DNA of 64,000 bases from an uncultured Acidobacteriota bacterium (lineage in GTDB: Bacteria; Acidobacteriota; Vicinamibacteria; Fen-336), in the NCBI GenBank assembly GCA_963720545.1, contig OY970399.1, positions 736,001 to 800,000 on the forward strand, read 5' to 3'. The notes below the pieces were generated by a model. That model did not search any database. It was not told where the DNA came from and saw only the letters and a list, made by a program, of their open reading frames with translations. The number at the start of each line of letters is the position of its first letter. Position 1 is the first letter of the stretch. Made by a program: the position numbers and the translations under genes. This document shows positions 1 through 12,778 of this stretch, piece by piece.

Positions 1-1517
<1,517 letters not shown>

Positions 1518-1523
1518 GGTTAC

Positions 1524-1553
1524 ACGCTACGAGACGCAGCTGTAACCTGTCAA
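1524..1553 (-). promoter_or_regulatory. sigma70-type promoter TTGACA-N18-TAGCGT
   Basis: Minus strand TTGACA (1548-1553) and TAGCGT (1524-1529), 6 nt before GTG 1517. Overlapped by the inverted repeat GGTTACA/TGTAACC. Confidence 0.5.
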
Positions 1554-1638
1554 CTACCTTTTAGAAGTTACGGCCTAGTCGGAGGAGATCCCTCGGTCGC
1601 AGCGCAAGCGACTACTCCTTCGGGAAAACGACCAAACG

Positions 1639-3060
<1,422 letters not shown>

Positions 3061-3105: not shown

Positions 3106-5037
3106 TTACCAGCCCCCTCCGCCTCCGCCGCCGGACGAACTGCCGCCGCCTCCCCCGCCCCCTCCCGACGAACTCCCGCCGCTGCTGGAACTCGCGGCCG
3201 CCACGCCGGAACCCATCGCCGTTGCTCCCGCGACGAACGCCGCGGTCGCGCCCGCGCCGCCAAACGACCCGCCGCCGCCGGTCCAGCCGCCGGCACTGGA
3301 AGGCACCGACCTGCCGCCTGTCGACCAGCCGCCGGACGATCCCGCCCCGCCGGTGTAAGTCGAGGCCGCGGCAGTGCCGGCACCGCCGAACGCATGCATC
3401 CAGCGATCGACTTCGGGCGCGAGGCCAAGGCCAACGAACCACGGGAACCATCGATCCTGCAGGCGCGGCGTCTCTTTCGAGAGCTCCGCCTCGAAGAAGC
3501 GTCGGGCGAGCAGGTAGTCGCGCCGCTCGCCCAGGCTCTCCGCGGTCTCGTTGCTCGCCATGCGATTGACGAACGAGCGCGCGCACGCCGCGGCCATGAG
3601 GACGATGGCGATGAGGGAGGTCAATGGCAGCGCCGGCTCCGGCACGACGCGAAGCGCGATGAATGCGCCGATGGCACCCACGGTCACGCAGGCGAACAAG
3701 AGGCCGACGATGGGCAGAGCGACGTTCTTCCGCGAGAGCACTGTCGCGATGATCGCGGGCAGCGAGATGAACGCAACGGCGCCGACGCCGAACAGGCCGG
3801 CGCCTTCGTGCGATAGGAACACAGAAACGAAGGCGAGCACCACGGCGCTCACCGCGATGAGGGCTGTGACCTTAGGCGACTCCTTCTTCCCCGGCGCCTT
3901 CGTACCGCGCATGGCCGCGTCTATGCGCTCCACCGGGTTGAAGCCCGACTTGCGATAGTGCGCGCGGATCGACTGCATGTCGGTCGCCTCCCCGCGCCGG
4001 AAGAACAAGCCGTTGATCAGCGGGCGCACGTCGGATTCGATTTCCTTGATCGGCACCAGCAGGTCGAGGAACAGGTTGGAGCGGCCGAGCAGGCCTTTCT
4101 TCGGCGCGACCCGCGAGCGGATCTTGCCCTCCTGCACCAGCCGCGCCAGCACCGCGGCAACTTCGGTGGCGCCAACCTTGCGGTCCCAGACGGCGCCCAC
4201 GACCTCGGGCCGCTGGTGAAAGAGATGCGTCTCGAGCCATTCTTCGTCCACTTCCGAAAGCGGCGGCAGCGGCGCGAAGCGGCCGAGCTGGGCGTCGCGC
4301 CGGAAAAACCAGACGAGCCGTTCGAGGAATACGAGAGCGAGCGCAGCCACCGCGATCCACCCGTAGCGCGCGGGCAGCCGCGGCACCACCGCGCTCGCCG
4401 GCGCCCCGGCGCCGGTGAAACGCAGCGCGGCGCGGTAGACGTAGCCTCGGCCCGGTGCCAGGCGCACGTTCGCCACGGGCTCGAGCGGCGCCGCGGCCTG
4501 CCAGCCCGGACCGAGCTCGAGCCGCGCCGAGAAGCGTTCGATGGGACCCACCCGGTCGGCGAAGGCGAAATCGTGATCGAGCCGATAGGCGCCCGGCTGC
4601 GACGAGGTCAGCGCGCCCGTGTATCGGTACTCGATGCGGTACATCGCTTGCGTATGGTCGAACTCCGGATCGGTCGGCAGGCGGCTCCGCCAGCGCAGCA
4701 CGTTGCTGGAAGTCCAGTCGTAGCCGTTGACGACATCGAGATTGCCTCGAACCATCGGCGTCTCGCTGCCGGTGGCGGGGTCGACGCGCACCATGCTCAC
4801 GAGCTGCACCATCTGGCCCTTGTGAAGAGTGAAGATGCGCTCGCCGCCGTTCCAGTCGCCGGTGAACTCGATCGTCTGCGTTTCGCGCACCGAGAGGCTG
4901 CCGTCGCTCTCGAGGCGCGCTTCGACGTCGATCGCCGGCCAGAACAATTCGCGCGCACTCGCGGGCGCTGCGCCCAGGAGGGTAAAAGCCAGCGCTGCCA
5001 AGCGGACGGCGGGGCGAAGCCATGCTGTCGGGGCCAT
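3106..5037 (-). CDS. DUF2207-family membrane protein
   Basis: Signal peptide, DGSLSVRETQTIEF..GDWNGGER N-domain, several TM segments and a Gly/Ser tail ending GGGGGGW. Confidence 0.8.
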   Translation of the reverse strand: MAPTAWLRPAVRLAALAFTLLGAAPASARELFWPAIDVEARLESDGSLSVRETQTIEFTGDWNGGERIFTLHKGQMVQLVSMVRVDPATGSETPMVRGNLDVVNGYDWTSSNVLRWRSRLPTDPEFDHTQAMYRIEYRYTGALTSSQPGAYRLDHDFAFADRVGPIERFSARLELGPGWQAAAPLEPVANVRLAPGRGYVYRAALRFTGAGAPASAVVPRLPARYGWIAVAALALVFLERLVWFFRRDAQLGRFAPLPPLSEVDEEWLETHLFHQRPEVVGAVWDRKVGATEVAAVLARLVQEGKIRSRVAPKKGLLGRSNLFLDLLVPIKEIESDVRPLINGLFFRRGEATDMQSIRAHYRKSGFNPVERIDAAMRGTKAPGKKESPKVTALIAVSAVVLAFVSVFLSHEGAGLFGVGAVAFISLPAIIATVLSRKNVALPIVGLLFACVTVGAIGAFIALRVVPEPALPLTSLIAIVLMAAACARSFVNRMASNETAESLGERRDYLLARRFFEAELSKETPRLQDRWFPWFVGLGLAPEVDRWMHAFGGAGTAAASTYTGGAGSSGGWSTGGRSVPSSAGGWTGGGGSFGGAGATAAFVAGATAMGSGVAAASSSSGGSSSGGGGGGGGSSSGGGGGGGW

Positions 5038-5210
5038 TTGGCCCGCAGTCTACGCGCGCGGGTTCGGGCCGGCTGGGGGCGAAATCGCCGTAACAGGTGT
5101 GTCACAGGTTTCGTAGACAATGCGGACAGGTGGAGAAATCGTTGACTTTCGTTTTTTCTTCGCTTAGGGTGCTGGCTACGCCACGAGGCATTCAAGAAAG
5201 GACCGATCCC

Positions 5211-5696
5211 ATGAGCAACCTTGCGTTCTGCCTGGAGCGCCGGAAGGCCGAGCTGCCGGCCACCATCAAGGTCATCAAGGCCATCCCCGCCGACAAGATG
5301 GGCCACAAGCCAGAAGAGAAGGCGCGCACCGCGGGCGACCTCGCCTGGGTGCTGGCCGGTGAAGAAGAGAGTCTGGTCGCGTTGCTGGACAAGGGCGAGT
5401 TCGATTGGAAAGAGTCGGCCGCCCCCAAGAGCACAGATGAAATCGCGGCGCACCTCTCGAAGCACCATGAGCTCGTCAACGAGCGGTTGGCGAAGCTCGA
5501 CGAAGCCACGTGGGGCAAGCCGGGCAAGATGCTCTACGAGGGCCAGGTGGTCTGGACCGATACCGTCGGCAACATGGTGTGGGGCATGCTGTTCGACGGC
5601 ATCCACCACCGCGGCCAGCTCTCTACGTACCTGCGGCCGATGGGCTCGAAGGTGCCGGCGATCTACGGCCCGTCCGCCGACGATAGCGGCCAGTAG
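5211..5696 (+). CDS. DinB/YfiT-family protein
   Basis: KPEEKART motif and C-terminal IHHRGQLSTYLRPMGSKVPAIYGPSAD. SD-like GAAAGGA precedes ATG 5211. Confidence 0.85.
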   Translation: MSNLAFCLERRKAELPATIKVIKAIPADKMGHKPEEKARTAGDLAWVLAGEEESLVALLDKGEFDWKESAAPKSTDEIAAHLSKHHELVNERLAKLDEATWGKPGKMLYEGQVVWTDTVGNMVWGMLFDGIHHRGQLSTYLRPMGSKVPAIYGPSADDSGQ

Positions 5697-5719
5697 CGCC
5701 CGTCGTAAGATCGCCGGGA

Positions 5720-7810
5720 ATGGTGCGCAAGCCCGGCGATCTTCCCTTCCCCGGCTGGGCGGTCACGGTGTTCGCCTGCGCCCTCGGCGCGCGCCTCCTG
5801 TTCCTGTTCGCGGCCGACCAGCCGCTGCTCTACACGCACCAGTACGGCTACTTCCACAACGCGCTGCGGATCGCCACCAACCCGCATCCACTCGACTACA
5901 TACTCCGCGACGAAGAGTGGCGGACGTGGGACCGCAACTGGACGATCGCGCCGCTTTACTACGTCTTCGCCGCCGCGGTGCTGAAGCTCTTCGCCTTGCA
6001 CCTCGCGGGGCTGCAGGTGGTGCAGTGCGTGATCGACTCCGCAGTGGCGGTGCTGGTTGCCGCCATGGGCCGCCGCGTCGCCGGACCCTGGGGCGCGGCC
6101 GCCGGCATCGCCTACGCTTTCTACGCGCCAGCGATCGAGATGCCGTCGTGGGTGCTCACCGAGAACCTGCACACGCCGCTCTTCGTCCTCGGCCTGTGGC
6201 TCACGATCCGCGCTTGGGAAGAAACGCCCCGCCGCGGCCCGTACTTCATGGCCGGCCTGGTGCTCGGCATCTCGGCGCTGGCGCGCTCGGTCACCTCGGC
6301 CTTCATGGGTGTGCTCGCAATCGTCTCGCTACTGTTCGGGACCGGGACGACGCGCAGCCGGCTGCGTTGTGTAATCGCACTGACGCTGGGCGGCGCCTGC
6401 GCCATCCTGCCGTGGACCGCGCGCAATGTCTTCGTCGTCGGCGATCCCATCCTCATCGAGAGCACGGCGTTCGAGAACATCTGGTTCGCCAACCGCTTCG
6501 TCGAGGGCGACCGTTTCCTGCGCCAGGAGGCCTACGTCCACTCGCGCCCGACGCCGGCCGAGAAACGCGCCGCCGCATTCCAGTTCGCGAAGGCAGGCAT
6601 CGAACGCCGTCCCGACCTGTTCATTGCCAAGATCGGCCGCAACTTCTGGCACCTGCTGCGGCCCGAGGGCCTGCAGAACCTGCTCGCGGCCGACCGCTCT
6701 GAGCCGCGCTGGCGACAGGTGTTCGCTGTGATCCTCGACGACTTGCCGCTCTTCATCATGACGGCGCTTTTCCCGGTGTTCCTCGTCGTGGGTCCCGTGG
6801 GCCCGACCCGTCGCGCAGTCGTCGCGTGGAGCGCCTACTACCTGCTGATGATCGTGGTGGTGTTCCACAACGAGATCCGCTACCGCAGCGTGCTCGTGCC
6901 GTTCCTGTTCGTCGCCGCGGCCGGCGCCATACCGGTGCTGCGCGGCAAGCGCCTCTTCCACAAATGGTTGGCGCTCGCCGCCGGTGTCGCCGCAGCGAGC
7001 CTGTCGGTGGCACCGTTCATCCCGCTCGCAAGCCAGGTGCTGGCCGCCCGCGCCCAGGCGGGCGCCGCAGGCGCCGCACTGCGTCCGGGCGCAGCCGACC
7101 CCTGGTTCGACGAAGGCAAACAGCTGGCGCGGAAGGGCCAATGGATCGAGAGCGCCGCCGCCTACGAGCGCGGCGAAGCCATCCGCCGCACCGCCAGCGT
7201 CCGCGGCGAAGTGGCGCTGCCGCGCGTCCTGCGCAACGCCGGCAGGACCGACGCCGCTGACGCCGCGCTCCGCGACCTGCACCGCTTCGAGTGGGACTTC
7301 GATCCGTGGCTCCTGCAGCAGGCCGCCTGGCGCGAACTCGAGGCGCCTCGCACCAGCGACCTCGTCATCGGCGGCGACGATTCGGGCGCGGTCCTAGGCT
7401 TCTTCCATCCGCGCGGCGACGACCCGCGCATGAGCGCCCACCGCCTGGAATGGAACAAGTACGCACCGCCCGGCCCCGTTCCGCCGCCGGGCCTGCACCG
7501 CTGGACCCGCCACCGCGCGTTCATCCGCATCGAACCCGAACATCAGGCCGCGGCTTACCGCGTGACCATCACGATGGGCTCGCCGTTCCCGTCGCCGCAA
7601 GCCTCGCCCAACATCACGGTGCGCATCGGCGGACGCAACGAGCCGCGCACGCTGAACACCGAGCTGCGCGACTACGTGTTCGAGAACGTCAAACAAGACA
7701 CGGGTTCACCGGCGATCGTCATCCGCATCGACTGCCCCACCTGGAACGCCGTGGGAGAACCCGCGGAGCAGGGCATCCGCGTTGATCGCGTCCGCGTGGA
7801 ACCGATATAA
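5720..7810 (+). CDS. GT-C fold membrane glycosyltransferase (family 39/PMT-like)
   Basis: Many TM helices with motifs APLYY, LTENL, PWTARN, EIRYR; soluble C-terminal domain. Confidence 0.7.
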   Translation: MVRKPGDLPFPGWAVTVFACALGARLLFLFAADQPLLYTHQYGYFHNALRIATNPHPLDYILRDEEWRTWDRNWTIAPLYYVFAAAVLKLFALHLAGLQVVQCVIDSAVAVLVAAMGRRVAGPWGAAAGIAYAFYAPAIEMPSWVLTENLHTPLFVLGLWLTIRAWEETPRRGPYFMAGLVLGISALARSVTSAFMGVLAIVSLLFGTGTTRSRLRCVIALTLGGACAILPWTARNVFVVGDPILIESTAFENIWFANRFVEGDRFLRQEAYVHSRPTPAEKRAAAFQFAKAGIERRPDLFIAKIGRNFWHLLRPEGLQNLLAADRSEPRWRQVFAVILDDLPLFIMTALFPVFLVVGPVGPTRRAVVAWSAYYLLMIVVVFHNEIRYRSVLVPFLFVAAAGAIPVLRGKRLFHKWLALAAGVAAASLSVAPFIPLASQVLAARAQAGAAGAALRPGAADPWFDEGKQLARKGQWIESAAAYERGEAIRRTASVRGEVALPRVLRNAGRTDAADAALRDLHRFEWDFDPWLLQQAAWRELEAPRTSDLVIGGDDSGAVLGFFHPRGDDPRMSAHRLEWNKYAPPGPVPPPGLHRWTRHRAFIRIEPEHQAAAYRVTITMGSPFPSPQASPNITVRIGGRNEPRTLNTELRDYVFENVKQDTGSPAIVIRIDCPTWNAVGEPAEQGIRVDRVRVEPI

Positions 7811-7839
7811 TCGCCGTTCGTTCGTCCCTGCCTAGGTTC

Positions 7840-7914
7840 GGCTCGCTAGCTCAATGGTAGAGCAAGAGACTCTTAATCTCTGGGTTGAAGGTTCGAGTCC
7901 TTCGCGAGTCACCA
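7840..7914 (+). tRNA. tRNA-Lys (CTT)
   Basis: Cloverleaf: acceptor GGCTCGC/GCGAGTC, D arm GCTC..GAGC, anticodon arm AGAGA-CT-CTT-AA-TCTCT, T arm GAAGG-TTCGAGT-CCTTC, 3' ACCA. TATAAT at 7806-7811. Confidence 0.97.
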
Positions 7915-7937
7915 ACTTACGGGCGCCGCCCTGAAGC

Positions 7938-7958
7938 CGGCAACCAAAACGGCAACCA
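7938..7958 (+). repeat. CGGCAACCA direct repeat (possible integrase arm-type sites)
   Basis: CGGCAACCA at 7938-7946 and 7950-7958; a third GGCAACCA at 8009-8016. Confidence 0.5.
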
Positions 7959-8081
7959 TTTGCGCGCCGGACTATCTAGCGCGGCGTGGCGCGAGTCAAG
8001 GAAAGACAGGCAACCACCTGTCCATACCGCGGCACCGTGTCAGTAGGATGTGTCCTTCAGATTGCGGCAGCAAGAGGGGCA

Positions 8082-8546
8082 ATGACGGAAGGCGACGGTT
8101 TCGAGGCGCGGATTAGGGCGAGTTTTGCGCGGCAGGGTCTGATGGCGACTATCGGCGCTGTGCTTGAAACGGTGGCGCCTGGATCTGTTGCGATTTCTCT
8201 GCGACCGCAAGCGGCTATTTCGCAGCAGCACGGCTTTATTCATGCCGGTGCACTGAGCGCAATCTGCGACTCCGCTGCTGGTTATGCCGCCCTCACGCTC
8301 ATGGCGCCTGGGCGAGGGGTCCTGACGACAGAGTTCAAGATCAACTTTTTAGCGCCGGCAACGGGAGACCGGGTCGTCGCTGTGGCTAAGGTAGTCAAGG
8401 CAGGCCGAACGCTGACGATCGCCCAAACCGAGCTGTTTGCCGAAACTGCTAAGCAAACAACCTTGATCGCGCTACTAATAGCGACACTCATGAGCGTCGA
8501 TGTAGGTCAGTACGTTTCTGACGACGCAAATCGTGCCCTTCAGTAA
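8082..8546 (+). CDS. PaaI-family thioesterase (hotdog fold)
   Basis: SQQHGFIHAG...DSAAGYAA, VLTTEFKINFLAPA, VVKAGRTL. SD GAGGGG before ATG 8082. Confidence 0.9.
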   Translation: MTEGDGFEARIRASFARQGLMATIGAVLETVAPGSVAISLRPQAAISQQHGFIHAGALSAICDSAAGYAALTLMAPGRGVLTTEFKINFLAPATGDRVVAVAKVVKAGRTLTIAQTELFAETAKQTTLIALLIATLMSVDVGQYVSDDANRALQ

Positions 8547-8812
8547 TGGTGCCACGCCGACCAGGAGCTTGACGTGTTCACCTATAAGCCTGTTCACTTC
8601 ACCGGCCCGAAGGCGGCGCGGGTATCGGTGTCGGGGGCTCTGCATCGGGATCTGATGTGCGCGGTTGCATGAACGCTCTTTCTTAGGTTTGTCGTGGTTC
8701 AGCATCTGCATGTTGGATGCCACGGGGAACCTGACCCCTCATCTGCGCGGGCGCCACAAAGGCGGCAGATGGATTAAGGACAAAGGAACGGCAGGCGCTG
8801 CGGCGCCCAACG

Positions 8813-8893
8813 CAAAGAATGCCCGGTCCGTAGCGAGAGCATTCTCTAGGGACCGAGCATCCGGTGGCCGGCCCCTTCAGCAGGCGGCCACCG
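8813..8893 (-). ncRNA. candidate ~80-nt small RNA
   Basis: Minus-strand TTGACT-N17-CAAAGT (8899-8927), then a 9-bp hairpin (8862-8870/8885-8893) and a 15-bp imperfect hairpin (8819-8833/8846-8860) followed by TCTTTG. Confidence 0.35.
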
Positions 8894-9029
8894 CACGCAC
8901 TTTGAATGGCCGTTCGGACAGAGTCAACATAAACCGTATACAGGGAGGACTATGAATCGGGCGCCGATCCGAAATCAGGGAATTCCCCAATAGCGTGCTT
9001 CGGCCTGGACTCAGTAGCGTTGACGGTCG

Positions 9030-9326
9030 ATGGCCAATTCCGGAGCCGGTTCGATGAAGCCAAACGCCCTCGTCGGAACTCGCGTGGAATTTCTTAGTGA
9101 CGTGTCTCCTGCCGCTTGCGGCGATTGGGGTACGGTCGTTAGCGTCAGAACCTTCGACACTGGACTAGAGGTTGTCGTGGTGGAGTGCCGCGGAAAGGCC
9201 ATAGCAACATATCGGTCTGAGATTCGCCCACTCGCCGATCAGTCGGCCACCACGCGTCTATCCAGTCGCGCTCGCGACGCAGCCACGCAAGCTCCGTCAC
9301 ATCAGAGTGCGGACGCTTCCGACTAA
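9030..9326 (+). CDS. hypothetical protein
   Basis: 98-aa ORF with a plausible small beta-rich core, followed by an inverted repeat; no recognised family. Confidence 0.35.
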   Translation: MANSGAGSMKPNALVGTRVEFLSDVSPAACGDWGTVVSVRTFDTGLEVVVVECRGKAIATYRSEIRPLADQSATTRLSSRARDAATQAPSHQSADASD

Positions 9327-9346
9327 CCGCTACTCGCTGTTACAAG

Positions 9347-9385
9347 CGCCCGACCCGAACAGCTAGAACGGGTCCGGGTCGGGCG
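9347..9385. terminator. inverted repeat / possible terminator
   Basis: CGCCCGACCCG (9347-9357) and its exact reverse complement CGGGTCGGGCG (9375-9385); no clear U tract. Confidence 0.4.
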
Positions 9386-9671
9386 AAGGCGTCCTTTGAA
9401 CGAAACCTCACCTCTGCGAGGACCCCTCCGGGTGGACTCCTTGCGCGGGACTTAAGCAACTGAAATGCCAAGGCGAATGACGCTGAAGGCGTGGAATCGA
9501 GTCGAAAGCGTCGGCTAGGGCGCCCCGGGCGTGGAACATTTCTACAAAGGCGAGCAGCGAGCCCTCAGGGGAGTTCTCTAGTAGTGCGCGCCAGCTCCCC
9601 GTCGAGGCGCCTCCGCACAGTTCATTTACGGCGACCCTTGACAGTTGGCTCCCGCGGGAGTTGGATGAGAC

Positions 9672-9983
9672 GTGGACGTTGCTTCGCGAGTGCTCAGCGG
9701 GTTGACCATCGTCGCCGGCCTCGCTTGCTCCAGCTTGGGCACGTGCTGGCTGTACTTCGTACCCGCCGCCCACGGCTGCTGCGAAGAGGCGACGATGCAA
9801 AGCCACCAACAGCCTTGCGGGTCCGGCGTCACGTATGTCACCGGCCCAACGCTGACGCCACCGACAATTGCTCCCCTCTCCATCTACCACGCGCCGGTCT
9901 CGCTGAACTTGTGTTTGGCCGGTCGCGACGCGTTTCGCGGTCCTCGAGTGGATCGTCCACCGCCGTTGGTTCTCCGGATTTAG
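9672..9983 (+). CDS. putative regulatory leader protein (DUF2946/CutF/CruR-like architecture)
   Basis: 103 aa with a hydrophobic N-terminus, 6 Cys including HGCC, and a Pro-rich C-terminus ending RGPRVDRPPPLVLRI. Confidence 0.65.
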   Translation: MDVASRVLSGLTIVAGLACSSLGTCWLYFVPAAHGCCEEATMQSHQQPCGSGVTYVTGPTLTPPTIAPLSIYHAPVSLNLCLAGRDAFRGPRVDRPPPLVLRI

Positions 9984-9988
9984 AGGTC

Positions 9989-10060
9989 TGTCCGTCTCCA
10001 AATATCAGCCGCATTAACGCCGTTATTTGTTGACGGGTAGCCCCCGTCAGGAGACTGACA
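9989..10060 (+). promoter_or_regulatory. SD-sequestering RNA structure (three-way junction)
   Basis: TGTCCGTCTCC (9989-9999) is complementary to GGAGACTGACA (10050-10060) at 10 of 11 positions. Inner helices are AAATA/TATTT (10000-10004/10024-10028) and TGACGGG/CCCGTCA (10031-10037/10043-10049). Confidence 0.65.
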
Positions 10061-10185
10061 TGATGAAGTTCATTCTTGCCGCACTGTTCGCAACGACGCT
10101 GGGCGTCTCAGCGCCGGCTGTGGCTGCCGCCGATTGCTGCGCCGCCGGGACCGCTTGCTGCGAGACCGGATGTTGCTGCTGTTAG
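10060..10185 (+). CDS. 41-aa secreted Cys-rich peptide (metallothionein-like)
   Basis: MMKFILAALFATTLGVSAPAVAAADCCAAGTACCETGCCCC*. SD AGGAG at 10049-10053, Sec-type signal with A-x-A site, terminator directly after. Confidence 0.8.
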   Translation: MMKFILAALFATTLGVSAPAVAAADCCAAGTACCETGCCCC

Positions 10186-10201
10186 TGTTCTAACCAGACG
10201 G

Positions 10202-10235
10202 ACGGCGGGGGCCACGGCTCCCGCCGTTTTTCTTT
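10202..10235 (+). terminator. Rho-independent terminator
   Basis: ACGGCGGG...CCCGCCGT stem followed by TTTTCTTT. Confidence 0.8.
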
Positions 10236-10354
10236 ACGCCGAAGGACGGCGGTGAGAATGCCGGCCCGTCGCCAGGCCACATTCCAACCGAACTCAGGCG
10301 CCGGGTGTCCCACCTTTATCCTGTGGATTGGACCGCTCAGGAGAGGGAGGGTCG

Positions 10355-12778
10355 GTGTGGCCTGACGTTCGGTACGCGCTTCGAAGCATCGCGAAGAAGC
10401 CCCTCTTCTACTCCGTCGTGATCCTGACGCTCGCGCTCGGGATCGGCGCTAACGCGGCGATCTTCACGGTGGTCAACGGCGTGCTGTTGCAGCCGCTCCC
10501 CTATCCCCACTCGGACCGCCTGATGATGGTGTGGACGCACAATCCTCGGCAGGGCTTCGACAAAGACGTCGGCAACTACCCGAATTTCGAAGACTGGCGC
10601 CACGCGAGCCTGTCGTTCGAGCGGATGTCCGCGTACCTCGGGGCGAGCGTGACGCTGACGGGGAACGGCGATCCGGCGCAGCTCCGCGGCGCCCGAGTCA
10701 CGCACGAGTTCTTCGAGACGATGGGTATGGCACCGCTTCTCGGCCGTCCCTTCGGTTTCGCCAACGGTCAGGCGGGCGGTGAGCACGTGGTCATCCTGGG
10801 CGACGGTCTCTGGAAGCGGCGGTTCGGGGCGGATCCGGCCGTCATCGGCCGACTCATAGTGCTGGACGGCATACCGCACGAAGTTATTGGCGTCATGCCG
10901 GCGAGCTTCGCGCATCCGGCGGACGCCGAGCTCTGGCTGCCGCTCGCGCCTGTCGGGGACTTGCAGGCACTTTTCGAGTCGCGCGGCTCCTATTGGCTCA
11001 CGGTCATCGGCAGGCTGAAGCCCGGCGTCAGCCAGGTCGCCGCCCAGTCGGAGATGGACACCATTGCCAGGCGTCTCGAGAAGGAGTACCCGTCAAACGC
11101 CGGCATCGGCGTCCTGCTGGTGACGATGCAAGAGGAGCTGGTCGGCGACGTGAAGCGCCCGCTGCTCATCCTGCTGGGTGCGGTGAGTTTCGTCCTGCTG
11201 ATCGCCTGCGCCAACGTCGCGAACCTGCTGCTGACACGCGCCGCCGCCAGGCAACGCGAGCTCGCGATCCGGGCTGCTGTGGGTGCCGACCGCCGCCGAC
11301 TGGTGCGACAGTTGCTGACCGAGAGCGTCGTCCTCGGGCTTCTTGGCGGCGTCGCGGGACTCTTGCTTGCGACCCTCTGCATCAATCGGCTGCAGGCGCT
11401 CGCGCCGGCCGAGTTGCCGCGGCTCTCGGAGATTGCCATGGGCGGGCCGGTACTAGCGTTCGCCGTTTGCGCCTCGGTATTCACGAGCCTGCTGTTCGGC
11501 GTTGTGCCCGCTCTTCATGCGTCGCGGCGCGACTCGGGTGGACAACTGAAGGAGGGTGGGCGCACGGGGTCCGACAGCCGCCGCGGTGGCCGCGTGCGAA
11601 GCGCGATCGCCGGGGGAGAACTGGCCATCGCGCTCGTGCTGGTCGTCGGTGCCGGCCTGCTGATCCGCAGCTTCATCGCGCTCAACAGCGAAGACCCGGG
11701 TTTTGCCACCAGAGGCGTGCTGGCGCTGCGCCTTGACCTGCCGCGCGCGACGTATGGTGAGCCCGCCCAGATCGCAAACTTCTTCGAGCGGCTGGTCGAA
11801 CGTCTCGATGCGCTGCCGGGCGTCGAATCCGCCGCCGCCGGATCTTCCGTGCTCCTGTCGCGGCTGCCAGCTTCGGCCAGCATCAGCATCGAAGGCAGGC
11901 CACCGCTGCCCGCAGATGCCCCGAACATCCCCGTTCCCTACGACTCCGTCACGCCGGAGTACTTTTCGACACTGCAGATCCCCTTACGCCGGGGACGCAT
12001 GTTCACCGGCGCGGACGGACCGCGGTCCCAGCCCGTCGTGATGGTGAACGAGACGTTCGTCAAACGGTTCTTCCATGGCGAGGATCCGCTCGGCCGGCGC
12101 GTGACGTTCGACGACCCGTCGCGACCCGAAGTTCGGTGGCAAACGATCGTCGGCGTCGTGGCGGATACCAAGCGCGGCGGGTTCGAGCGGCGGCCGTGGG
12201 CGGAAACGTACTTCCCGCTGCGCCAGGCACCCGATCCGCAGACCTTCGTGCTGCTGCGGACTGGCGGAGATCCGATCCCGCTGGTCGCGGCGGCCCGGGC
12301 AGCCGTATGGTCGATCGACCGCAATCAGGCGATCGCCAGCGTCCGCACCGTGCCGGAGCTGCTCGCCCAACAGCAAATGAACCGGCGCTTCACGACGCTG
12401 CTGCTCGGGATCTTTGCCTCGGTCGCCCTCGTGCTCGCGATCATCGGTACCTACGGCGTCATCGCACACGCAACTGCACAGCGCACCCAGGAGATCGGAA
12501 TTCGTATCGCGCTCGGGGCCGACCGCGGGACGATCCTGCGCTTGGTGCTGAGCGGCGGACTCCGCATCGCCGCCGCCGGGCTCGCGATCGGCATCTGCGG
12601 CGCGCTCGCCCTCACGCACGTGCTCTCCGGCCTGTTGTTCGGTGTTGGCGCTCGCGACCCGCTAACGTTCGTCGTCGTGCCTGGGGCGCTGCTGGTCGCG
12701 GCGCTGGCGGCCTGCTGGATCCCTGCGCGCCGCGCCATGCACGTACAGCCGGCAATCGCCTTGCGGGGCGATTCCTAG
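10355..12778 (+). CDS. duplicated MacB/FtsX-type ABC permease (ADOP-like)
   Basis: DVRYALR, LTLALGIGANAAIF, LLIACANVANLLL, QRTQEIGIRIALGA, WIPARRA. GTG start after SD GGAGG. Confidence 0.92.
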   Translation: MWPDVRYALRSIAKKPLFYSVVILTLALGIGANAAIFTVVNGVLLQPLPYPHSDRLMMVWTHNPRQGFDKDVGNYPNFEDWRHASLSFERMSAYLGASVTLTGNGDPAQLRGARVTHEFFETMGMAPLLGRPFGFANGQAGGEHVVILGDGLWKRRFGADPAVIGRLIVLDGIPHEVIGVMPASFAHPADAELWLPLAPVGDLQALFESRGSYWLTVIGRLKPGVSQVAAQSEMDTIARRLEKEYPSNAGIGVLLVTMQEELVGDVKRPLLILLGAVSFVLLIACANVANLLLTRAAARQRELAIRAAVGADRRRLVRQLLTESVVLGLLGGVAGLLLATLCINRLQALAPAELPRLSEIAMGGPVLAFAVCASVFTSLLFGVVPALHASRRDSGGQLKEGGRTGSDSRRGGRVRSAIAGGELAIALVLVVGAGLLIRSFIALNSEDPGFATRGVLALRLDLPRATYGEPAQIANFFERLVERLDALPGVESAAAGSSVLLSRLPASASISIEGRPPLPADAPNIPVPYDSVTPEYFSTLQIPLRRGRMFTGADGPRSQPVVMVNETFVKRFFHGEDPLGRRVTFDDPSRPEVRWQTIVGVVADTKRGGFERRPWAETYFPLRQAPDPQTFVLLRTGGDPIPLVAAARAAVWSIDRNQAIASVRTVPELLAQQQMNRRFTTLLLGIFASVALVLAIIGTYGVIAHATAQRTQEIGIRIALGADRGTILRLVLSGGLRIAAAGLAIGICGALALTHVLSGLLFGVGARDPLTFVVVPGALLVAALAACWIPARRAMHVQPAIALRGDS

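Follow-up and report, generated by a model that had tools for sequence, protein, structure and literature searches.

Among the systems closest to the locus described here are those built around two proteins, CutF and CruR. CutF of Rhodobacter capsulatus, a DUF2946 or "CutF-like" protein encoded in the cutFOG operon, is described as acting only in cis, with a stem-loop that shields the next gene's Shine-Dalgarno (SD) sequence and an intergenic region of less than 100 nt (PMC9973294; bioRxiv 10.1101/2025.02.05.636593). Under a rule-based definition (Ozturk et al. 2023, PMC9973294), CutF-like proteins are shorter than 150 aa, carry PP among their final 15 residues and a signal peptide at the N-terminus, and are followed within 1000 nt by a gene on the same strand. 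CruR of Bordetella pertussis (Bp2923), a DUF2946 protein, is described as poorly structured by prediction, with about 45 residues, a conserved length, between its metal motif and its proline motif; it represses a TonB-dependent transporter in a Rho-dependent manner, across an intergenic region of 162 nt (PMC9426467).

We analysed a candidate module of this kind in a window of 64,000 nt (the whole stretch of DNA under analysis) from an uncultured bacterium of the Acidobacteriota. An earlier note on this DNA had proposed that a leader ORF controls an exported Cys-rich peptide, a pairing of which it knew no description, and in the CC-licensed literature of PMC and bioRxiv we likewise found no description of such a leader and Cys peptide pair. 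The module is more than a chance arrangement: homologues of each ORF occur elsewhere, and the two are found together again in the same layout. Both genes are real, conserved and under purifying selection and, as judged by comparison with the family databases, neither belongs to a described family.

Layout of the module

The elements of the module are collected in Table 1. Those listed in the earlier note are all present, namely the TTGACA box, the 103-aa ORF (with a hydrophobic N-terminus, HGCC and further Cys residues, and an end reading DRPPPLVLRI-stop), the 41-aa Cys-rich ORF of a predicted secreted product, with its 8 Cys within the last 16 residues, and the intrinsic terminator. So is the spacer, which is one nucleotide shorter than the 77 nt given there; folded together with its flanks it reaches −36.7 kcal/mol (z = −2.31), a value which 4 of 200 shuffled sequences equalled. 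The module had also been placed inside a tRNA island, which does not hold, as ARAGORN finds two tRNAs in the 64-kb window, and the nearest, a tRNA-Lys at 7840-7914, lies about 1.7 kb upstream of the module.

Table 1 Features of the module in the window, with positions counted from the first nucleotide of the window
Feature	Position	Strand	Remarks
Promoter −35, TTGACA	9638-9643	+	17-nt spacer to the −10-like TTGGAT at 9661-9666
Leader-like ORF, 103 aa + stop	9672-9983	+	GTG start; TAG stop at 9981-9983
Leader C19, S20, G23, C25, W26	9726-9749	+	Invariant in the alignment
Leader HGCC	9771-9782	+	HxCC in 46 of 49 members
Leader C49	9816-9818	+	Lone invariant Cys
Leader C-terminal PPPLVLRI	9957-9980	+	Directly ahead of the stop
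Alternative anti-SD, UCUCC	9971-9975	+	Within the leader Val-Leu-Arg codons; SD partner in the minimum free energy fold of the window
Leader-peptide spacer	9984-10059	+	76 nt
Post-stop C/U-rich tract, GGUCUGUCCGUCUCCA	9985-10000	+	Complementary to the SD..AUG region of the peptide gene
Small GC-rich hairpin, UGACGGG / CCCGUCA	10031-10049	+	Abuts the SD; from folds
SD of the peptide gene, GGAGA	10050-10054	+	GGAG core 6 nt ahead of the ATG
Cys micro-protein gene, 41 aa + stop	10060-10185	+	Signal-peptide-like N-terminus; 8 Cys
Intrinsic-terminator-like element	10200-10238	+	Stem 10200-10229 with 13 pairs (9 G-C), then TTTTTCTTT

In 9 of the 11 loci for which upstream DNA is available, a composite element TTGACN-N17/18-TNNNAT lies 5-10 nt ahead of an in-frame leader start, itself placed 18-19 codons ahead of the leader's invariant Cys; the same pattern has 13 matches on both strands of the 288,030 nt that make up all the DNA scanned. 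The −10 element of the window ends 5 nt ahead of the GTG, and a −10 that ends 5-10 nt before the start of the leader implies that the mRNA is leaderless or nearly so. A generic promoter scan called no promoter at 9638-9666, because it demands an A at the second position of the −10 element. At the other end of the module, a strong GC hairpin follows the stop of the peptide gene in 10 of 10 loci, with a clear U tract in the window and in L013 only. An Rfam scan of positions 7000-12000 at E ≤ 1 returned only the tRNA and, at the terminator, a match to ar35 whose 21.2 bits fall short of the cut-off of 45, and a scan of six related loci at the Rfam gathering thresholds gave no matches.

One soil metatranscriptome library contains a contig of 263 nt which covers 9708-9970, inside the leader, with 6 differences; it is a weak hint of transcription, since DNA carry-over is possible. 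Among the contigs of this same single library, which were the only data used from it, none lies over the peptide gene, an observation that has no bearing either way.

A conserved leader family outside DUF2946

A search of 1.84e9 representative sequences recovered 51 homologues of the leader at E ≤ 1e-3, of which 27 also reach E ≤ 1e-10, and in 50 of the 51 the final position of the profile is also the final residue of the protein. Most of the homologues (45 of 51) are 89-117 aa long, the others being two fragments of 56 and 62 aa, one protein of 130 aa and two longer ones with 237 and 269 aa. The alignment and all motif counts refer to 49 members, in which C19, S20, G23, C25, W26, C37, C49, L101 and R102 are invariant, while H34, C36, P64, P97, P98 and I103 are kept in at least 90%. 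Members of the family begin with an N-terminal helix that carries a lipobox-like LACSGLGxCW, and this is followed by HxCC, a lone Cys, a variable linker and PPLVLRI directly ahead of the stop. All 49 members end in VLR[IV]-stop, and 43 carry a PP about 5-7 residues from the C-terminal end. The conserved terminal element is PPLVLRI-stop; of the RPPP end pointed out earlier the PP is kept and the Arg is not conserved. In 48 of the 49 leaders the last conserved Cys and the PP are separated by 43-49 residues (mode 45), in a stretch that is itself variable.

The N-terminus is a predicted export signal, either a signal peptide or a lipoprotein-like anchor: its n-region contains R or K in 46 of the 49 members, and in 45 a lipobox-like pattern, as in PROSITE, ends at the invariant Cys. 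The AF2 model of the leader has helices at residues 3-21 and 25-29, and the remainder is coil. Selection on the leader is purifying, with a median dN/dS of 0.52 and values below 1 in 54 of 55 pairs. The last 7 codons differ synonymously between loci, with TTG, CTC, CTG and TTA all in use for Leu99, a pattern of selection at the level of the peptide.

The family was found in 2 of 59 genomes of the same taxonomic family as the source, and a species-level genome collection yielded two leader loci, one of them a remnant, in a scan by a single peptide pattern that does not imply absence elsewhere. The two leader loci with named records belong to Acidobacteriota, and the two-gene unit is conserved in related soil metagenome contigs. 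The leader ORF of the window matches no Pfam family at E ≤ 1, and six leaders and ten peptides compared with NCBIfam gave only weak matches at the level of the signal peptide, far under the cut-offs.

The leader, which the earlier note had likened to those of the DUF2946 type, is not a member of DUF2946. None of the 49 members matches PF11162 (DUF2946) at E ≤ 10, and a six-frame search of the source genome with the same model found no match. Alignment of the 49 leaders with 17 acidobacterial DUF2946 proteins by hhalign gave a probability of 0.4% and E = 0.15 over 27 N-terminal columns, where the DUF2946 side is a narrow sample made up of Terriglobales-like sequences only. DUF2946 itself occurs in 1 of 301 sampled genomes of Acidobacteriota. 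The leader has no conserved CXXC, its Cys pattern being CSxxGxCW, HxCC and a single Cys, and RAPP is absent as well; we therefore reject membership of DUF2946.

With neither a DUF2946 match nor a relation detectable by hhalign, the analogy to CutF and CruR is one of architecture. As such it is partly supported: the leader appears to share with these sensors an export signal, a Cys/His motif, a spacing of 43-49 residues and an initiation region downstream that could be sequestered. Together with the Pro motif these features agree with the CruR/CutF-like layout proposed before, and by the rule-based definition given above the leader family is CutF-like.

The Cys peptide and its linkage to the leader

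The window peptide used as a single query found no homologues, and an alignment of the peptides found 25 database proteins at E ≤ 1e-3, none of them labelled beyond "hypothetical protein". The family is of about 40 residues with six to eight Cys, and its consensus is a signal peptide followed by CCxPGAACC-x3/4-CC. In the window the peptide has a putative Sec-type signal peptide ending in APAVA, with a cleavage site that was read from the AxA pattern, and a predicted mature part of about 19 residues with 8 Cys, arranged as CC-x5-CC-x3-CCCC. The median dN/dS of the gene is 0.33, with values below 1 in 44 of 45 pairs. Chance ORFs in GC-rich DNA, which we considered as an explanation of the two reading frames, are ruled out by the homology and the dN/dS of both genes. 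Neither Pfam nor NCBIfam precursor models match the peptide, which would most likely be a periplasmic thiol-rich buffer of metal or redox state. A complex prediction of leader residues 19-103 with the peptide, run without controls, scored 0.02 against a mark of 0.32, and weighs neither way.

The earlier note had named a lack of synteny in relatives as a ground for giving up its proposal. This check favours the proposal: wherever the 3' end of the leader is intact, in 14 loci, the peptide gene lies 72-98 nt downstream of it. The peptide gene is complete in 12 of the 17 loci, and in two more, which stop at the end of a contig, its SD, ATG and first codons are visible. The flanking genes vary from locus to locus, and no neighbour other than the peptide gene is conserved. 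In L013, L015, L016 and the L018/L019/L024 group the next gene recognised by Pfam is convergent, and in the window, L017, L022 and L027 it belongs to four unrelated families. Since the flanks differ in this way, the peptide is the only candidate target of the leader; across the scanned flanks, no metal gene lies consistently near the module.

Complementarity between the post-stop RNA and the initiation region

All 11 distinct loci have, just past the leader stop, a C-rich tract that complements the SD, the AUG and the first codons of the peptide gene and is the conserved partner of the SD, and the 5' arm of this complementarity begins between −2 and +3 nt from the stop. For the window, RNAduplex gives −18.4 kcal/mol between the tract at 9985-10000 and 10049-10065, a value reached by 4.7% of 9025 genomic 33-mers. 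In every one of the 11 loci the corresponding duplex has an energy under the genomic mean; 6 of them fall in the lowest 5% and 5 do not. Fisher's method applied to 9 lineages gives p = 4e-7 for the complementarity, a value that is overstated because the loci are related.

The SD is paired in the minimum free energy folds of 8 of the 11 loci with a pyrimidine-rich box, CUCC or UCUC, 6-25 nt past the stop. In the fold of the window the SD pairs with a probability of 0.78 with the UCUCC inside the leader and of 0.20 with the post-stop CUCC; the former is not conserved at the RNA level, since its codons vary synonymously between loci. The GC-rich hairpin directly 5' of the SD is seen in other loci too, as judged by eye. 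The probability of SD pairing at each locus is barely above that of dinucleotide shuffles, a fraction of 0.05-0.84 of which equal or exceed the observed value. RNAalifold on a MAFFT alignment of the 11 spacers gave a 4-bp hairpin, lying within the Pro..Arg codons, as its sole result, with neither a common long-range helix nor compensatory pairs; the lengths of the spacers are too unequal for an approach by alignment to be productive. For the stem proposed earlier to mask the SD, the complementarity is consistent across the 11 loci, the pairing of the SD is not clearly above that in shuffled sequences and no covariation was recovered. In all 11 loci C makes up 33-57% and G 7-20% of the first 30 nt past the leader stop, and the tract at 9985-10000, being C-rich and G-poor, may alternatively be a Rho-loading tract.

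Proposed mechanism and alternatives

We read the module as a nascent-chain sensor in the style of CutF and CruR that gates the translation of a periplasmic thiol-rich peptide, with a probability of roughly 0.55; export, ribosome arrest, the response to a ligand or metal, the direction of regulation and the function of the peptide are all parts that we infer. A sigma-70-type promoter would drive a leaderless or nearly leaderless bicistronic mRNA, from which the leader would be made as an exported, mostly unstructured sensor of about 100 aa acting in cis. Its Cys/His ligands (CSGLGxCW, HxCC and Cys) would be outside the cytoplasm while the ribosome is still on the final codons, and their ligand state, be it the binding of a thiophilic metal (Cu(I), for instance) or a thiol/disulfide status, would alter the dwell of the ribosome near PPLVLRI-stop. 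A ribosome parked at the end of the leader would keep the post-stop RNA off the SD and AUG, leaving the initiation region of the peptide gene open, and with fast exit of the ribosome this region would close, or Rho would load on the C-rich tract. As output, a secreted peptide about 17-20 residues long would be made, its Cys arranged in three vicinal pairs. Against this reading, PP-Leu is not known to rank among the strongest polyproline stallers in the literature on EF-P. Moreover, a ribosome with PP in its P and A sites would extend roughly to the stop codon, short of the main anti-SD box at +6 to +25, so that pausing at or near termination would be needed.

The rival that we take most seriously, although we think it unlikely, is that the two exported proteins simply function together: for example, a membrane-tethered Cys/His lipoprotein would load, oxidise or anchor the peptide, the stem would be a constitutive coupling that sets their stoichiometry, and PPLVLRI would be a tag for sorting, protease recognition or binding. 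The lipobox-like pattern of 45 of the 49 leaders makes a stable lipoprotein possible, purifying selection on both genes and their strict co-occurrence would be expected equally of partners, and the opening of a sequestered initiation region by upstream translation is described as a generic coupling device (PMC12548453). What speaks against partners is that about 70 of the 103 leader residues are predicted coil, variable in sequence yet conserved in length, which fits a ruler better than a folded protein, and that the conserved C-terminal heptamer lies in every case right next to the stop codon and to the point where the RNA helix begins. A transcriptional variant closer to CruR, in which the post-stop tract is a Rho-loading site that is exposed when leader translation terminates promptly, leaving the peptide gene untranscribed, seems to us improbable. 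It has the precedent of CruR (PMC9426467) and the C-rich, G-poor composition described above in its favour, but a spacer of 72-98 nt and a target of about 126 nt leave little room for Rho to load and terminate, and a pure rut site needs no complementarity to the initiation region.

The other two rivals concern the peptide itself. That it is the precursor of a ribosomally synthesised and modified product (RiPP) like bufferin or methanobactin, matured by enzymes encoded elsewhere in the genome, is to us very improbable: no MNIO, radical-SAM or other maturase domain occurs among 138 flanking ORFs of 10 loci, no precursor model of NCBIfam or Pfam matches, and the one MNIO gene (PF05114) that the genome does have, which could be counted for this reading, is about 1.64 Mb away and adjoins a 12-Cys precursor of its own. 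Bufferins, on the other side, are described as Cys peptides with a signal peptide that chelate copper (PMC11626156, PMC12452194). It is harder still to believe that the Cys-rich ORF has no product and acts as a cysteine-responsive attenuator, in which ribosomes held up on the Cys codons would control readthrough of the hairpin into the genes downstream, as with the polycysteine short ORFs of mycobacteria (bioRxiv 10.1101/834739). The run of Cys codons does stop 15 nt ahead of the terminator hairpin, and the mycobacterial precedent exists, but an SD of its own precedes the ORF, its signal peptide is conserved, its tail is kept as CCxPGAACC rather than as mere Cys codons, and the genes downstream are convergent or unrelated across loci.

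A bolder form of the sensor reading, which we advance as tentative, is that of a transmembrane nascent-chain sensor which would have evolved independently of DUF2946, would be made from a leaderless mRNA and would pause during termination at the invariant PPLVLRI-stop, with an enzyme-free, secreted hexa-cysteine "micro-metallothionein" as its sole regulated output. Such a product could carry Cu(I) in a polynuclear thiolate cluster or act as a buffer against thiol stress in the periplasm. If the sensor reading is true, exported nascent-chain sensing of metal or redox state would have arisen, or diverged past recognition, outside DUF2946 in a major soil phylum. The secreted peptide of about 20 residues with vicinal Cys would be a new class of regulated product, a minimal periplasmic buffer without maturation enzymes, and ribosome studies would gain a new candidate, PPLVLRI-stop, for arrest or for a pause at termination. 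In the bolder form, an entire stress-response circuit would take up about 600 bp and would mostly escape gene callers and family databases; six-frame searches based on synteny recover, as here, genes that match neither Pfam nor NCBIfam.

Comparison with known systems

CutF and the leader are both small proteins with Cys ligands, a C-terminal Pro motif and a short intergenic region, Sec-exported in the case of CutF and by prediction in that of the leader. The motifs of CutF are CxxxC and PPP, whereas here they are HxCC, a lone Cys and PPLVLRI-stop. Targets of CutF-like proteins are a multicopper oxidase, an RND/OEP component, a TonB transporter, PCuAC or CusF, whereas the candidate target here is a Cys peptide of 40 aa. 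The leader also differs from CutF in being unrelated in sequence, in the promoter geometry of a leaderless mRNA and in its occurrence in Acidobacteriota. With CruR it has in common an export signal, a Cys motif, a Pro motif a few residues from the stop, a spacing of about 45 residues and a poor predicted structure. CruR has CXXC and RAPP, both of which the leader lacks, and unlike the intergenic region of CruR, the RNA between the two genes is here complementary to the initiation region downstream.

Like the bufferins, the peptide is Cys-rich, ribosomally made and, here by prediction, secreted, and bufferins are linked to copper stress (PMC11626156, PMC12452194). Bufferins need an adjacent MNIO and a partner protein, neither of which is found in the flanks of any scanned locus of the module, and the peptide described here, with its vicinal CC pairs, is a good deal shorter; the bufferin-like cluster of the genome lies elsewhere. 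In the mycobacterial polycysteine system a leaderless first ORF comes ahead of a duplex that hides the next ribosome-binding site and is controlled by the position of the ribosome (bioRxiv 10.1101/834739), an arrangement which, by our proposal, the module shares. The roles are distributed differently, as in mycobacteria the Cys-rich ORF is itself the sensor of Cys supply, whereas here it encodes the downstream product, and the candidate sensor is a protein of about 100 aa.

Leader and peptide genes

The earlier note had described a TTGACA box, a 103-aa ORF, a structured spacer of 77 nt, a 41-aa secreted Cys-rich ORF and a terminator, all inside a tRNA island. All the parts are present, the spacer having a length of 76 nt, and this description was confirmed except for the island, as ARAGORN finds two tRNAs in the 64 kb, the nearest being tRNA-Lys. 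The N-terminus of the leader ORF is hydrophobic, an HGCC contributes to its several Cys, and the ORF ends ...DRPPPLVLRI-stop. The peptide ORF has a signal-peptide-like N-terminus, its 8 Cys lie in the last 16 residues, and its Shine-Dalgarno sequence (SD), GGAG, is 6 nt from the ATG. The spacer with its flanks folds at -36.7 kcal/mol (z = -2.31; 4 of 200 shuffles are equally stable).

Features of the module and their positions in the window
Feature	Position	Description
Promoter	9638-9666	-35 TTGACA 9638-9643; -10-like TTGGAT 9661-9666
Leader ORF	9672-9983	103 aa, GTG start
Spacer	9984-10059	76 nt
Peptide ORF	10060-10185	41 aa, 8 Cys
Hairpin (terminator-like)	10200-10229	13 pairs, TTTTTCTTT 3' of stem

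Since long ORFs are frequent by chance in this GC-rich DNA, we sought relatives of both. A DNA search of 41 related genomes gave one partial match, in G021, a genome from another genus of the same family, where a 104-aa ORF with HDCC, likewise ending PPLVLRI-stop, is followed by an 85-nt spacer, a 44-aa signal-peptide ORF with the tail DCCAPGADCCNGGSCC, and a hairpin. With a profile built from the leader ORFs of the window and G021, we retrieved 51 of 1.84 billion representative proteins at E<=1e-3 (27 of these at E<=1e-10), almost all of 96-117 aa, and in 50 of the 51 the profile's final position is the protein's final residue. In a 49-sequence alignment, C19, S20, G23, C25, W26, C37, C49, L101 and R102 are invariant and A18, H34, C36, P64, P97, P98 and I103 are at least 90% conserved, the consensus being (R/K-rich)-hydrophobic-LACSGLGxCW ... 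HxCC ... xC(A/G)S ... PP ... PPLVLRI-stop. The final seven codons vary synonymously (Leu99 is TTG, CTC, CTG or TTA), which indicates that the peptide PPLVLRI, and not an RNA motif, is conserved. For the peptide, a search with an alignment of ten sequences found 25 database proteins of 37-59 aa; in their consensus a signal peptide with AxA at its end leads into CCxPGAACC-x3/4-CC. The peptide has no match among Pfam or NCBIfam models. Pairwise dN/dS, with dS near saturation, has a median of 0.33 for the peptide (<1 in 44 of 45 pairs) and 0.52 for the leader (<1 in 54 of 55), which supports selection on both products. Judged by this conservation, both ORFs are real genes.

Conserved adjacency and distribution

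Sixteen further loci with the leader family (L013-L028) were obtained from genome and metagenome collections, making 17 with the window, and 14 of them have an intact leader 3' end. A complete peptide gene lies 72-98 nt downstream in 12 of these 14, and in the other two (L023 and L025) the contig end cuts it after a visible SD, ATG and first codons, so that the adjacency which the earlier note had proposed to check in relatives holds. Because of duplicates (L013/L020, L021/L022, L024/L025), the set comprises 11 distinct sequences from about nine lineages. Of the three loci outside the 14, L026 lies at a contig end and its C-terminus has diverged, L028 breaks off within the leader, and L014, from an Acidobacteriaceae MAG, is a short remnant (~4046-4087) with the first part of a leader-like ORF only, LACSGLGRCWHRASH-stop; no PPLVLRI end or Cys peptide was found in its vicinity in any frame, and it is probably a decayed copy.

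The flanking genes encode DegT, CDF and AcrB (L013), HTH and DUF3592 (L015), glyoxalase and DUF4423 (L016), transglutaminase-like and CHASE3-PAS (L017), histidine phosphatase (the L018/L019/L024 group), DUF3857 and AhpC/redoxin (L022), sortilin/BNR (L027) and, in the window, a MacB/FtsX-type permease. No conserved neighbour besides the pair was found in the flanks examined and the next recognisable gene past the peptide is convergent in four lineages, which points to a self-contained unit with the peptide as its sole possible cis target. In the L013 (G021) lineage, the CDF (cation-diffusion-facilitator) and AcrB/RND-type genes (5045-6612, minus strand) are convergent with the module, a hint of heavy-metal context in this single lineage. 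In L022, identical in sequence to L021, an AhpC/TSA-redoxin (thioredoxin-fold) ORF (3502-4110) starts at the first nucleotide past the peptide stop on the same strand, a possible thiol-redox link that is absent from the other lineages. The window's 816-aa MacB_PCD and FtsX permease (10328-12778), downstream of the terminator, is presumably one of the duplicated orphan permeases that are common in Acidobacteria; soil metagenome contigs pile up very deeply on 10400-10487 and leave many loose ends, the pattern expected of the start of a multi-copy conserved gene.

The pair is sporadic: of 59 genomes from the window's family two have it, and most other copies are on metagenome contigs. Public runs sharing near-identical words with the window are mostly labelled soil or rhizosphere metagenome. 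Four of these runs were compared with the window, and DNA contigs of soil and rhizosphere runs cover the whole module.

Promoter and intergenic RNA

A TTGACN-17/18-TNNNAT composite precedes an in-frame ATG/GTG by 5-10 nt in 9 of the 11 loci with upstream DNA, this start codon being 18-19 codons ahead of the invariant Cys. The composite has 13 matches in 288,030 nt (all DNA examined, both strands), most of which are module promoters. In the window TTGGAT is 5 nt from the GTG, and an SD does not fit between them. Given the usual distance from a -10 element to the transcription start, the mRNA from which the leader is translated is probably leaderless or nearly so. In one soil metatranscriptome library a 263-nt contig matches 9708-9970 apart from 6 differences, which hints weakly at transcription in a close relative, as DNA carry-over is possible.

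Directly upstream of the promoter lies a 240-nt non-coding-looking element (9347-9586), which opens with a 14-nt inverted repeat (9347-9360/9372-9385), has no Rfam match and was not found ahead of the module in the other loci. Its one further genome copy (G000:C1:700056-700295; ~1448-1687 of the extracted region L006; 90% identity) ends ~40 nt ahead of an unrelated 197-aa ORF. In addition, GC falls to 0.53-0.62 in 7800-9100, directly after tRNA-Lys (7840-7914), against 0.65-0.75 in the flanking DNA; this stretch contains a 4HBT thioesterase gene (7986-8546), after which no Pfam-recognisable ORF occurs for ~1.1 kb (8550-9640), and may be an islet acquired at the tRNA gene, module included.

In every locus the tract directly after the leader stop is C-rich (33-57% C and 7-20% G in the first 30 nt) and a GC hairpin abuts the peptide SD. 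We used RNAduplex to pair the stop codon plus 30 nt with the initiation region (-16 to +15), with genomic 33-mers as background. The duplex energy is below the background mean in 11/11 loci and in the lowest 5% of genomic 33-mers in six (fractions: window, 0.047; L013, 0.006; L016, 0 of 332; L018, 0.023; L019, 0.032; L021, 0.002), with 0.09-0.22 in the remaining five. Combining the nine lineages by Fisher's method yields p = 4e-7, which overstates the significance, the loci being related. The 5' arm starts -2 to +3 nt from the stop codon in all 11 loci; its 5' end pairs with the AUG and first codons, its more internal part with the SD, and complementarity is kept as the paired sequences vary between loci. 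MFE folding of the 11 loci gives the SD a pyrimidine-rich partner box (CUCC/UCUC), 6-25 nt past the stop, in eight; the window SD pairs with UCUCC in the last leader codons (probability 0.78) or with the post-stop box (0.20). SD-pairing probability barely exceeds that of dinucleotide shuffles (fraction at or above the observed value, 0.05-0.84), RNAalifold on a MAFFT alignment found no common long-range helix or compensatory pairs, and no Rfam family matches. The SD-masking structure is thus a consistent tendency, not a proven fold. Past the peptide stop, a strong GC hairpin is found in 10/10 loci, with a clear U tract in the window and L013 only.

Proposed mechanism

In 45 of the 49 leader members a lipobox-like pattern, of the PROSITE kind, has the invariant Cys as its last residue, and R/K precedes the hydrophobic stretch in 46, so the leader is likely exported and possibly a lipoprotein. 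The AF2 model from the 49-sequence alignment has helices at 3-21 and 25-29, with the remaining ~70 residues as coil (mean pLDDT 68.9, pTM 0.26). In 48 of the 49, the gap from the last conserved Cys to the C-terminal PP measures 43-49 residues (mode 45), and this stretch is the leader's most variable part.

A leaderless mRNA would be made from the promoter and the leader translated from it. We infer all steps from leader export onward. The N-terminus would be exported co-translationally, and with the ribosome at the last codons ~45 residues would bridge the ribosome tunnel and translocon, placing the Cys/His cluster immediately beyond the membrane. A change in the cluster's ligand state (a thiophilic metal, or disulfide formation) would act on the nascent chain through its folding or a pulling force, and so alter the dwell time on PPLVLRI-stop. 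The putative RNA helix hiding the peptide SD and AUG begins at the leader stop codon, and a lingering ribosome would keep the initiation region open, whereas prompt release would let the helix close. A ribosome stalled with PP in its P/A sites would reach only about the stop codon, which favours pausing at or near termination; this would also account for the unvarying five residues after PP and for the stop position. Alternatively, prompt release may expose the C-rich tract to Rho. The sequence does not fix the sign of the response, in which CutF and CruR differ. The product would be a peptide of ~17-20 residues with three vicinal Cys pairs, buffering soft metals or thiol stress outside the cytoplasm.

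We give this sensor-leader mechanism a probability of roughly 0.55. Its main rival, two co-functioning exported proteins joined by plain translational coupling, seems to us less likely, at a little under half that weight.

Comparison with known systems

The peptide is very probably not a bufferin-type precursor, because none of the flanks scanned (138 ORFs from 10 loci) has an MNIO gene; the genome's single one is ~1.64 Mb from the module, beside its own 12-Cys precursor. That region (L031, G000:C1:2381594-2385379) is a bufferin-like cluster, in which the only MbnB/MNIO-family gene (~1501-2286; PF05114, E = 7.5e-106) is immediately preceded by the gene for a 116-aa signal-peptide protein (ORF 1044-1394) whose repeated CKGK/GGC motifs hold 12 Cys, so the organism probably has a second, enzyme-dependent Cys-peptide metal system. 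The peptide's own SD and conserved signal peptide, and the lack of a conserved downstream gene, also rule out a polycysteine attenuator of the kind described in 10.1101/834739.

CruR is a poorly structured DUF2946 protein, which is recognised by its export signal, a CXXC and a RAPP three residues from the end, and works via Rho (PMC9426467). CutF combines a Sec signal with CxxxC and with PPP at the C-terminus; the cutO SD is masked by a stem-loop, and periplasmic Cu binding prolongs the CutF stall (PMC9973294; bioRxiv 10.1101/2025.02.05.636593). 'CutF-like' genes, mainly of Pseudomonadota and Bacteroidota, were selected by rule-based filters (<150 aa, PP in the last 15 residues, signal peptide, same-strand neighbour within 1000 nt), and their neighbours include OEP, ACR_tran, HlyD, CusF, TonB-like, PCuAC, HupE/UreJ and NosZ/NosR (PMC9973294). 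The leader family here has every filtered feature, and shares the ~45-residue Cys-to-Pro spacing of CruR.

No sequence test places the family in DUF2946 (PF11162): the window ORF lacks Pfam hits at E<=1, PF11162 matches no sequence of the 49-member alignment at E<=10, a six-frame search of the window's genome found no DUF2946, and hhalign of the family against 17 acidobacterial DUF2946 proteins gives a probability of 0.4%. DUF2946 itself was rare in our scans, with one genome carrying it among 78 of the order and one among 301 sampled from the phylum. The sole PF11162 match in these 301 (L030, G171:C4:322323-325601, ORF 1471-1884, minus strand) is a genuine DUF2946 protein of Acidobacteriota; its motifs are CHTH, HCPVC and RGPP, with 43 residues from CXXC to RGPP, and its relatives are Terriglobales/Edaphobacter by protein-database label. 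We found no description of the leader/Cys-peptide pairing in the openly licensed PMC and bioRxiv literature that we searched.

The CruR/CutF-style reading of the earlier note thus stands in its logic, but not in its DUF2946 assignment or its motif, here PPLVLRI-stop. Taken together, the likeness by rule and the failed family tests suggest a module that works like a CutF/CruR leader and is not to be filed in that family. On this purely comparative evidence, leader and peptide are a new family pair and probably a new form of the nascent-chain metal-sensor theme.
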